The notes: generated by a model from the sequence alone, not told the origin. A DNA stretch of 64,000 nt from Armatimonadota bacterium (GCA_037443365.1 JBBIOM010000001.1:122304-186303); one strand, 5' to 3'; shown: positions 26,484 to 26,609, counted from the first letter of the stretch. A program made the numbers and translations.

Positions 26484-26609
26484 CTACATGTTCTCGCCGC
26501 CGCCACCACCGCCGCCGCTGCAGCAGCAGCAACAACAACACGCGATGATGATGTCACCGCCGCGGTCGAACAGGGTCATGCTCTCGAGCTCGACAATCTG
26601 CAGTTCCAC
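26484..26609 (-). CDS. RiPP (LAP/TOMM) precursor peptide, 41 aa: MELQIVELESMTLFDRGGDIIIACCCCCCCSGGGGGGGENM
   Basis: Manually translated; GGAGGTGA RBS 6 nt before GTG; Cys7 run; first gene of the YcaO cluster. Confidence 0.9.
   Translation of the reverse strand: MELQIVELESMTLFDRGGDIIIACCCCCCCSGGGGGGGENM

Follow-up and report, generated by a model that had tools for sequence, protein, structure and literature searches.

A family of unannotated cysteine-run precursor peptides encoded beside a probable azole-forming gene cluster in an uncultivated subsurface lineage

The window, i.e., the whole stretch of 64,000 nucleotides analysed here, contains a short open reading frame whose predicted product is built of blocks, and the question is whether so repetitive a frame is a gene at all and, if so, what becomes of its product. 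The earlier note had proposed a hidden 41-aa precursor with a strong ribosome-binding site, Gly-Gly at residues 17–18 and the succession Cys7-Ser-Gly7-ENM, the cysteines being encoded as (TGT)3(TGC)4 and the glycines by mixed GGC and GGT codons. Our translation, the ribosome-binding site and a codon read-out agree with that proposal and place the frame on the minus strand (Table 1). The product reads VELQIVELESMTLFDRGGDIIIACCCCCCCSGGGGGGGENM (41 aa), with three TGT followed by four TGC codons in the cysteine run and GGC GGC GGT GGT GGC GGC GGC in Gly7. The start codon is GTG in the window and ATG at the same position in relatives, and GAGGAGGTGA or GGGAGGTGA is found at equal distance from the start in 8 of 10 aligned precursor rows. 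The precursor has no match among NCBIfam and Pfam models. On the opposite strand, two long ORFs, 26188–26898 (+; 236 aa) and 26451–26819 (+; 122 aa), overlap the precursor gene; spurious-looking long overlapping ORFs are common on both strands throughout the surrounding high-G+C region. An 18-base TGY-repeat pattern occurs three times in the 2.2-Mb genome, and two of these matches overlap within the precursor ORF. The third, on contig C15, was rejected as a second precursor, as it is a Leu run in a long membrane-protein frame.

Table 1. Positions of the precursor gene, its parts, the accompanying genes and the candidate non-coding elements in the window, listed in the direction of transcription.
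Feature	Position	Strand	Basis or remark
CGATAGAA(C/T) box, candidate -10 element	26681..26689	-	just 3' of the comF-like stop, about 70 bases before the precursor start
Shine-Dalgarno GGAGGTGA	26623..26616	-	six bases before the GTG start; read directly
Precursor (A) peptide gene, 41 codons + stop	26484..26609	-	translation and 14 distinct homologs
Precursor leader, residues 1-18 (Gly-Gly = residues 17-18)	26609..26556	-	
Precursor variable spacer DIIIA	26555..26541	-	
Precursor Cys7	26540..26520	-	
Precursor Ser after Cys7	26519..26517	-	
Precursor Gly7	26516..26496	-	
Precursor C-terminal ENM	26495..26487	-	
G+C-rich stem-loop right after the precursor stop	26426..26475	-	minimum-free-energy fold
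C protein, E1/ThiF-like, 324 aa, N-terminal RRE-like leader-binding region, CxxC...CxxC	25381..26355	-	TIGR03882 and PDB matches
D protein, YcaO cyclodehydratase (SagD-type), 444 aa, ends ...PHPFP	24065..25399	-	TIGR03604, Pfam YcaO
B protein, SagB-type FMN dehydrogenase (azoline to azole)	23226..24104	-	TIGR03605, Pfam Nitroreductase
ABC transporter ATP-binding subunit, DrrA-like	22496..23233	-	76-77% identity in three same-genus genomes
ABC-2 type permease	21774..22499	-	Pfam ABC2_membrane 7e-25; 82-85% identity within the genus
RRE-fused site-2 (M50-type) metalloprotease, 299 aa, HExxH / NxxPxxxxDG	20887..21786	-	motifs, fold, below-cut-off family scores

The precursor gene is real and under purifying selection. 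Loci in related genomes, together with seven small database proteins from two database searches, gave a family set of 14 distinct precursor sequences. Of the seven database proteins, five are unnamed, one goes under 'hypothetical protein' and one bears the wrong label 'precorrin-6B methylase 2'. Across the 14 sequences, the family has in common the leader (M)ELQIVELES(V/M)TLFDRGG or a DLEILELEE...LFD variant, followed by a variable spacer of about 5–12 residues, the cysteine run, a single variable residue (S, N, Y, I, H or G) and a tail with 1 to 8 glycines. The precursors end acidic and then hydrophobic, as ENM, DMM, DMCM, DIM, DAM, DIL, EGDM, EGDF or EVQ. The cysteine run has seven residues in 12 of the 14, eight in one and nine in one; within the core, length is thus most stable in the Cys7 block and varies in the Gly tail. 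Leader codons 2–17 differ at 53 synonymous versus 5 non-synonymous places (six in-register genes, 15 non-independent pairs), and the choice between TGT and TGC differs among orthologs while the Cys count is constant at seven. Contigs of three further DNA runs show base substitutions and 0 gaps across the ORF, and the 11 listed substitutions within it are all synonymous or change GTG to ATG at the start (codon positions read by eye). The sequencing runs listed for this DNA comprise four DNA runs from one study, available as contigs, and no RNA run; the fourth DNA run is probably the window's own source and not independent.

These data bear on what the earlier note had claimed beyond the reading frame itself. 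The acidic leader with Gly-Gly is the conserved part of the precursor, and the suggestion that selection acts on the peptide, rather than that the run is a simple microsatellite, holds given the excess of synonymous change and the shuffling of TGT and TGC at constant count. The proposed search for precursor variants upstream of homologous YcaO genes succeeded, as described below. The further idea that triplet slippage could vary the ring number between strains finds no support, because the length of the Cys block is constant and it is the tail that varies in length, with no gap in the contigs of the other runs. Separately, the first four codons (12 bases) are duplicated in tandem in three family members (L004 3901–4026, L009 1775–1900 and P0003), which yields MELQMELQ... 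or MELLMELQ... and therefore two in-frame ATG starts. In another locus (L006, genome G001), nine mid-precursor codons at about 225–251 read N; the near-identical database protein P0002 is unbroken.

The precursor is the first gene of a co-directional set in which six genes follow with short overlaps or gaps between them. A comF-like gene lies upstream of the set, and a convergent 2,4-diaminopentanoate dehydrogenase gene lies downstream. The features expected of a linear azol(in)e-containing peptide (LAP/TOMM) pathway are found together here, namely a YcaO gene beside the precursor, an E1-like C protein, a SagB-type dehydrogenase and a short precursor with a conserved leader and a Cys-rich core. 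We thus consider it likely that the 41-codon ORF is the structural (A) gene of such a pathway, and a search with standard RiPP mining tools would probably pick the enzymes out as a LAP cluster. The C protein scores 64.4 bits against TIGR03882 ('TOMM precursor leader peptide-binding protein'; cut-off, 36.9), and its sequence matches in the PDB, TruD (4.9e-08) and LynD (5.1e-06), cover query residues 41–233 and fall on the N-terminal RRE-bearing parts of these proteins. A complex prediction from the C protein and precursor alignments gave a median score of 0.31 against a mark of 0.32 and is counted neither for nor against binding. The D protein reaches 262.2 bits against TIGR03604 (cut-off, 219.25) and 218.7 bits against Pfam YcaO (1.6e-64); its invariant columns include E90, E93, R94, E202, E205, R206 and the C-terminal P-H-P-F-P, which we take to be the ATP/Mg and PxPxP motifs. 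The B protein scores 109.9 bits against TIGR03605 (cut-off, 78.4) and matches Pfam Nitroreductase (1.3e-17). Ortholog alignments of the B protein begin at residue 15, and its true start is probably the ATG at 24053. The ABC-2 permease would serve export and probably self-protection. No regulator, and no immunity gene apart from the ABC transporter, was identified for the cluster.

Candidate non-coding elements, two of them weakly supported, flank the precursor gene on both sides. The CGATAGAA(C/T) box reads TAGAAC in the window and TAGAAT in relatives, and its CGATAGA part is invariant in all 5 aligned loci, including one from another genus that has no ComF-like match in its locus. Because a sigma-70 consensus scan returned 0 sites and no full promoter, the box is put forward as a candidate -10 element of the precursor operon. 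The stem of the G+C-rich stem-loop is kept in 4 of 5 aligned loci, with one pair changed on both sides in 2 sequences; the fold of the A–C spacer as a whole is not unusual (z-score, -0.54). The stem-loop lacks a U-tract and is not called by the terminator scan. It may act as a partial terminator or as an mRNA-stability element that sets the precursor-to-enzyme ratio. The single terminator-like call was disregarded, as it lies inside the precursor ORF. Additionally, a tandem motif, GTGAGAGCGGC-GTGAGAGGC, occupies 26384–26403 (-) between this hairpin and the ribosome-binding site of the C gene. Its GAGAG cores do not vary in any of the 5 aligned loci, one of which is from another genus, and nowhere else in the window does the motif occur. 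Binding of a regulator and action as an RNA element are both conceivable roles; a search of 26200–26900, which covers the motif, gave 0 Rfam matches at E up to 1.

Among 61 related genomes, YcaO is present in 12, and each of the 7 other genomes of the genus has it; these genomes are kin, and such occurrence counts are not independent. A Cys-run ORF lies upstream of YcaO in 11 of the 12 loci, and the twelfth (L008) begins inside YcaO without upstream DNA. The order comF-A-C-D-B-ATPase-permease-protease-ord is kept in 3 of 3 same-genus regions, and in one genome of another genus the seven genes from A to the protease are present but the comF and ord flanks are not. In more distant loci, C-D-B-ATPase is kept, and a more varied Cys-rich ORF precedes it in G009 and G025, not in G058. 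The YcaO gene is the only one in the genome. Searching for wider relatives with the single YcaO protein as query returned none, and searching with a YcaO alignment returned 409, the best 80 of which were taken. Outside its own family, YcaO has at most about 37% identity to proteins from Acidobacteriota, Actinomycetota and other lineages among these best 80 of 409. A short ORF with at least 4 consecutive Cys occurs at 8 of the 80 loci; two of the eight belong to the precursor family and at least two look spurious. The host lineage is uncultivated and high in G+C and comes from a subsurface metagenome according to the run labels. One related MAG of the genus carries the submitter label Candidatus Nitrosymbiomonas, Armatimonadota.

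Other Cys-rich candidate precursors were observed beside distant YcaO relatives, at L026 2293–2601, L050, L053 4813–5001, L020, L021, L010 and L011. Their hosts are Gaiellales and Actinomycetes MAGs as well as two genomes of the window's own family. These candidates have a leader of their own in common, …F(T/S)EL(S/T)EELLDL(S/E)ATT(R/K)GYGG…, and their cores include …CCGGCCNLVLCCCCSQICW and …CSESCCCCCCGCSCS….

Poly-thiazole is the most likely fate of the Cys block, because the C, D and B enzymes adjoin the precursor. We infer the five steps of maturation from the established functions of these protein families. The RRE-like N-terminus of the C protein would bind the leader (M/V)ELQIVELES(V/M)TLFDRGG. 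The C/D (E1-like/YcaO) cyclodehydratase would then, with ATP, convert the seven Cys, and possibly the following Ser, to thiazolines, which the SagB-type flavoprotein would oxidise to thiazoles. The outcome would be a rigid hydrophobic oligothiazole block, with the short variable spacer on one side and the Gly-rich acidic/Met tail on the other, on the assumption that a YcaO system can cyclize all seven adjacent Cys. The membrane RRE-site-2 protease would cut off the leader at or shortly after Gly-Gly, and the ABC-2 transporter would export the product and protect the producer. The role of the product is most likely that of a secreted antagonistic peptide directed at membranes or nucleic acids. 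A bolder proposal, which we hold tentatively and as less probable than its negation, is that the family makes a fixed-length homopolymeric heptathiazole rod. Selection would then keep the ring number constant despite the ease with which a TGY repeat is expected to slip, the spacer and Gly tail would drift freely, and maturation would be carried out by a daptide-type RRE-site-2 leader peptidase.

The last gene of the set encodes the candidate leader peptidase. Its best family match is NF041824 (daptide intramembrane metalloprotease) with 63.9 bits against a cut-off of 300, and we therefore treat the protein as a relative, not an equivalog, of the daptide peptidase. Matches to M50 and M50B have E values of about 0.004–0.006, and that to PqqD has 0.14. 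H178, E179, H182, N268, P271 and D276-G277 are invariant columns. The AlphaFold2 model (pLDDT, 74.7) shows a strand-strand-strand-helix-helix-helix succession at residues 16–86. The top Foldseek rows are a site-2 protease (3b4r), SpoIVFB, PqqD, the PbtF RRE, lasso B1 and TruD/LynD, all with E > 0.001, and thus serve only as a pattern, i.e., a site-2 protease together with RRE domains. The protease evolves faster than YcaO or the permease, with 49–56% identity within the genus versus 74–76% for YcaO and 82–85% for the permease. Conservation of the precursor stops at ...FDRGG, which favours cleavage of the leader at or soon after Gly-Gly, as judged from the alignment. No C39-type double-glycine peptidase is present. 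RRE-fused site-2 peptidases are daptide leader peptidases according to a preprint (bioRxiv 10.1101/2023.03.08.531785), and a protease of this type, known from daptides, is here linked to an azole pathway. A literature search that lay outside most subscription journals found no RRE-M50 fusion in an azole cluster.

The contiguous heterocyclizable block brings streptolysin-S-like cytolysins to mind (SagA/SagBCD/SagE/SagGHI; clostridiolysin S, listeriolysin S and BorA). According to Cox 2015 and Molloy 2015, their precursors likewise have a short leader, a contiguous heterocyclizable block that opens the core and a variable C-terminal extension, and their C and D proteins are likewise discrete and accompanied by a SagB dehydrogenase and an ABC exporter. 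The precursor could accordingly be a SagA ortholog and its product a true TOMM cytolysin with haemolytic or cytolytic activity, a reading to which we give a small chance. The Cys block here follows directly on a small residue and is trailed by a variable extension, the neighbouring genes are of the right kinds, and naturally short Borrelia precursors could mature into cytolysins (Molloy 2015). However, the N-terminal run of the cytolysins is given as 9–10 (Molloy 2015) or at least 10 (Cox 2015) contiguous Cys/Ser/Thr, whereas the heterocyclizable run is 8 here (C7S) and the block in the family is pure Cys and shorter (7–9). The protease of the cluster is of the RRE-site-2 type and not CaaX-like (SagE); the single Rce1-like gene of the genome lies on contig C21. 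The scores of the C protein and the permease are far short of the cut-offs of the SagC model (TIGR03603; 32.7 versus 187.65 bits) and the SagH model (NF038293; 25.4 versus 450 bits), and the gene order is C-D-B, not B-C-D. The host belongs to an uncultivated subsurface lineage and is not a pathogen. Additionally, Streptococcus, Clostridium, Listeria, Staphylococcus and Borrelia are absent from the best 80 of 409 YcaO relatives, a weak, pattern-based candidate set, and a plasmid tblastn search returned no Borrelia or other reference streptolysin-S-type D protein among the matches listed. Thus, the precursor resembles streptolysin S but is probably not a member of its family, because the run is shorter, no CaaX protease lies in the cluster, the SagC and SagH models stay below cut-off and the order is C-D-B.

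An equally improbable reading leaves the Cys block partly or wholly without heterocycles, so that the peptide would act through thiols or thiazolines, for example in metal binding. Seven adjacent thiols together with acidic and Met residues would bind soft metals, and the run labels trace the organism to a subsurface metagenome. Against this, the conserved neighbours of the gene include all of C, D and B, the last an oxidising SagB dehydrogenase, and the transport genes of the cluster are limited to an ABC-2 exporter pair, with neither a receptor nor an importer for uptake. The number of Cys is fixed, yet the 14 sequences show no conserved His or Cys spacing pattern.

The core might also be excised at both ends and its seven or eight contiguous azoles closed into a ring like that of telomestatin, but this is much less probable still. 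Telomestatin derives from an eight-residue core, and eight contiguous heterocyclizable residues (C7S) stand here between a spacer and a tail that both vary and look dispensable. However, the scan of the nine neighbouring proteins revealed neither a macrocyclase nor a second protease, and eight azoles are not conserved because the residue after the Cys run may be S, N, Y, I, H or G. That the frame is a chance ORF over a GC-rich triplet repeat from which no peptide is made is barely credible: the ORF is short, lies in high-G+C DNA rich in long spurious ORFs on both strands and includes a weak period-3 array over its Gly part (26495–26518; Tandem Repeats Finder), but all 14 distinct sequences keep its frame, its leader, the place of its start codon and its ribosome-binding site, with changes that are mostly synonymous. 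Its place directly upstream of C-D-B is conserved as well, and these conservation data already contradict the reading.

With the poly-thiazole LAP pathway as the preferred reading, the locus represents a new unannotated precursor family within the well-known LAP/TOMM class and no new kind of system. Its notable features, in an uncultivated subsurface lineage, are the pure Cys7 core of conserved length, the Gly tail of variable length and the daptide-type RRE-site-2 peptidase. A literature search that covered neither most subscription journals nor the precursor tables of Cox 2015 and Molloy 2015 found no homopolymeric Cys precursor or polythiazole RiPP, and a prior listing is possible. The core is about as simple as possible, with seven Cys in a row and this length conserved in most of the family, and it would therefore make a clean test substrate for the reach of the YcaO/E1/dehydrogenase trio on contiguous Cys and for the biology of a pure oligothiazole. 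The mechanism is conventional. If the product is a heptathiazole, however, contiguous-azole peptides would gain an unusually clean model, and the contiguous-azole pharmacophore on which streptolysin S is thought to depend would gain its simplest natural one; the structure of streptolysin S is still unsolved (Molloy 2015). A daptide-type RRE-site-2 leader peptidase, if confirmed here, has so far not been described for azole peptides.

Microcin B17 (McbA/McbBCD) offers a likeness in its Gly-run and in its azoles within a small DNA-directed peptide. Its azoles are isolated or paired and do not form a contiguous block. Heterocycloanthracin of the Bacillus cereus group is reportedly strain-variable in its repeat number, and the Cys count here is conserved rather than variable. 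That system has a fused, N-terminally truncated C-D enzyme and a separate Ocin-ThiF-like F protein, and its precursor is often encoded far away. In contrast, the C protein of the window keeps its N-terminal domain and the precursor gene is adjacent to the enzyme genes; the system is not heterocycloanthracin because its C and D proteins are discrete.

Certain plasmid-borne LAP clusters share the gene order of the present one. The best-scoring plasmid matches of the YcaO protein are in Clostridium sp. CF011 pCF011-89 and Lactiplantibacillus plantarum pPB (5e-48 and 5e-37, respectively; 30–33% identity), and both clusters have the order C-D-B-(extra enzyme)-ABC-ABC. In the former, what looks like a LAP precursor is annotated as 'hypothetical protein' (L105 3525–3692); it precedes a C-D-B-radical SAM-ABC cluster and has a duplicated LQL(K/E)IIxL leader motif and a Cys/Ser/Thr-rich tail. 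The latter, a conjugative plasmid, has an unannotated ORF of 35 aa that ends in ...WCCLFCCCC (L106 4532–4639). Directly after this ORF come genes for a C-like protein, YcaO, a SagB dehydrogenase, an insulinase-type protease and an ABC transporter. The likeness to the Clostridium candidate extends to the leader, which has LQLEIIEL there. However, the plasmid cores are mixed Cys/Ser/Thr or Cys/Phe/Leu and not homopolymeric, and the extra genes encode a radical SAM enzyme or an insulinase-type protease instead of an RRE-site-2 protease.

Leader handling suggests a likeness to daptides. The daptide peptidase MpaP/DapP also joins an N-terminal RRE-like domain to an HExxH membrane protease, the daptide model being the best NCBIfam match of the protein described here, though well below its cut-off. 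Both leaders are acidic and contain E-L-E, with ELExMEAP in daptides (bioRxiv 10.1101/2023.03.08.531785) and VELES in the window. Daptides have an invariant C-terminal Thr, whereas none of the 14 precursors ends in Thr, and the modification in the present family would be azole formation, as the enzyme genes suggest. Nor do the nine neighbouring proteins scanned include a daptide-type oxidative decarboxylase, aminotransferase or methyltransferase. The product is thus not a daptide, because both the C-terminal Thr and the daptide tailoring enzymes are lacking. In microcin B17, by comparison, the leader is removed by TldD/E (M103) according to a review, whereas the candidate for this step here is the RRE-fused site-2 protease.
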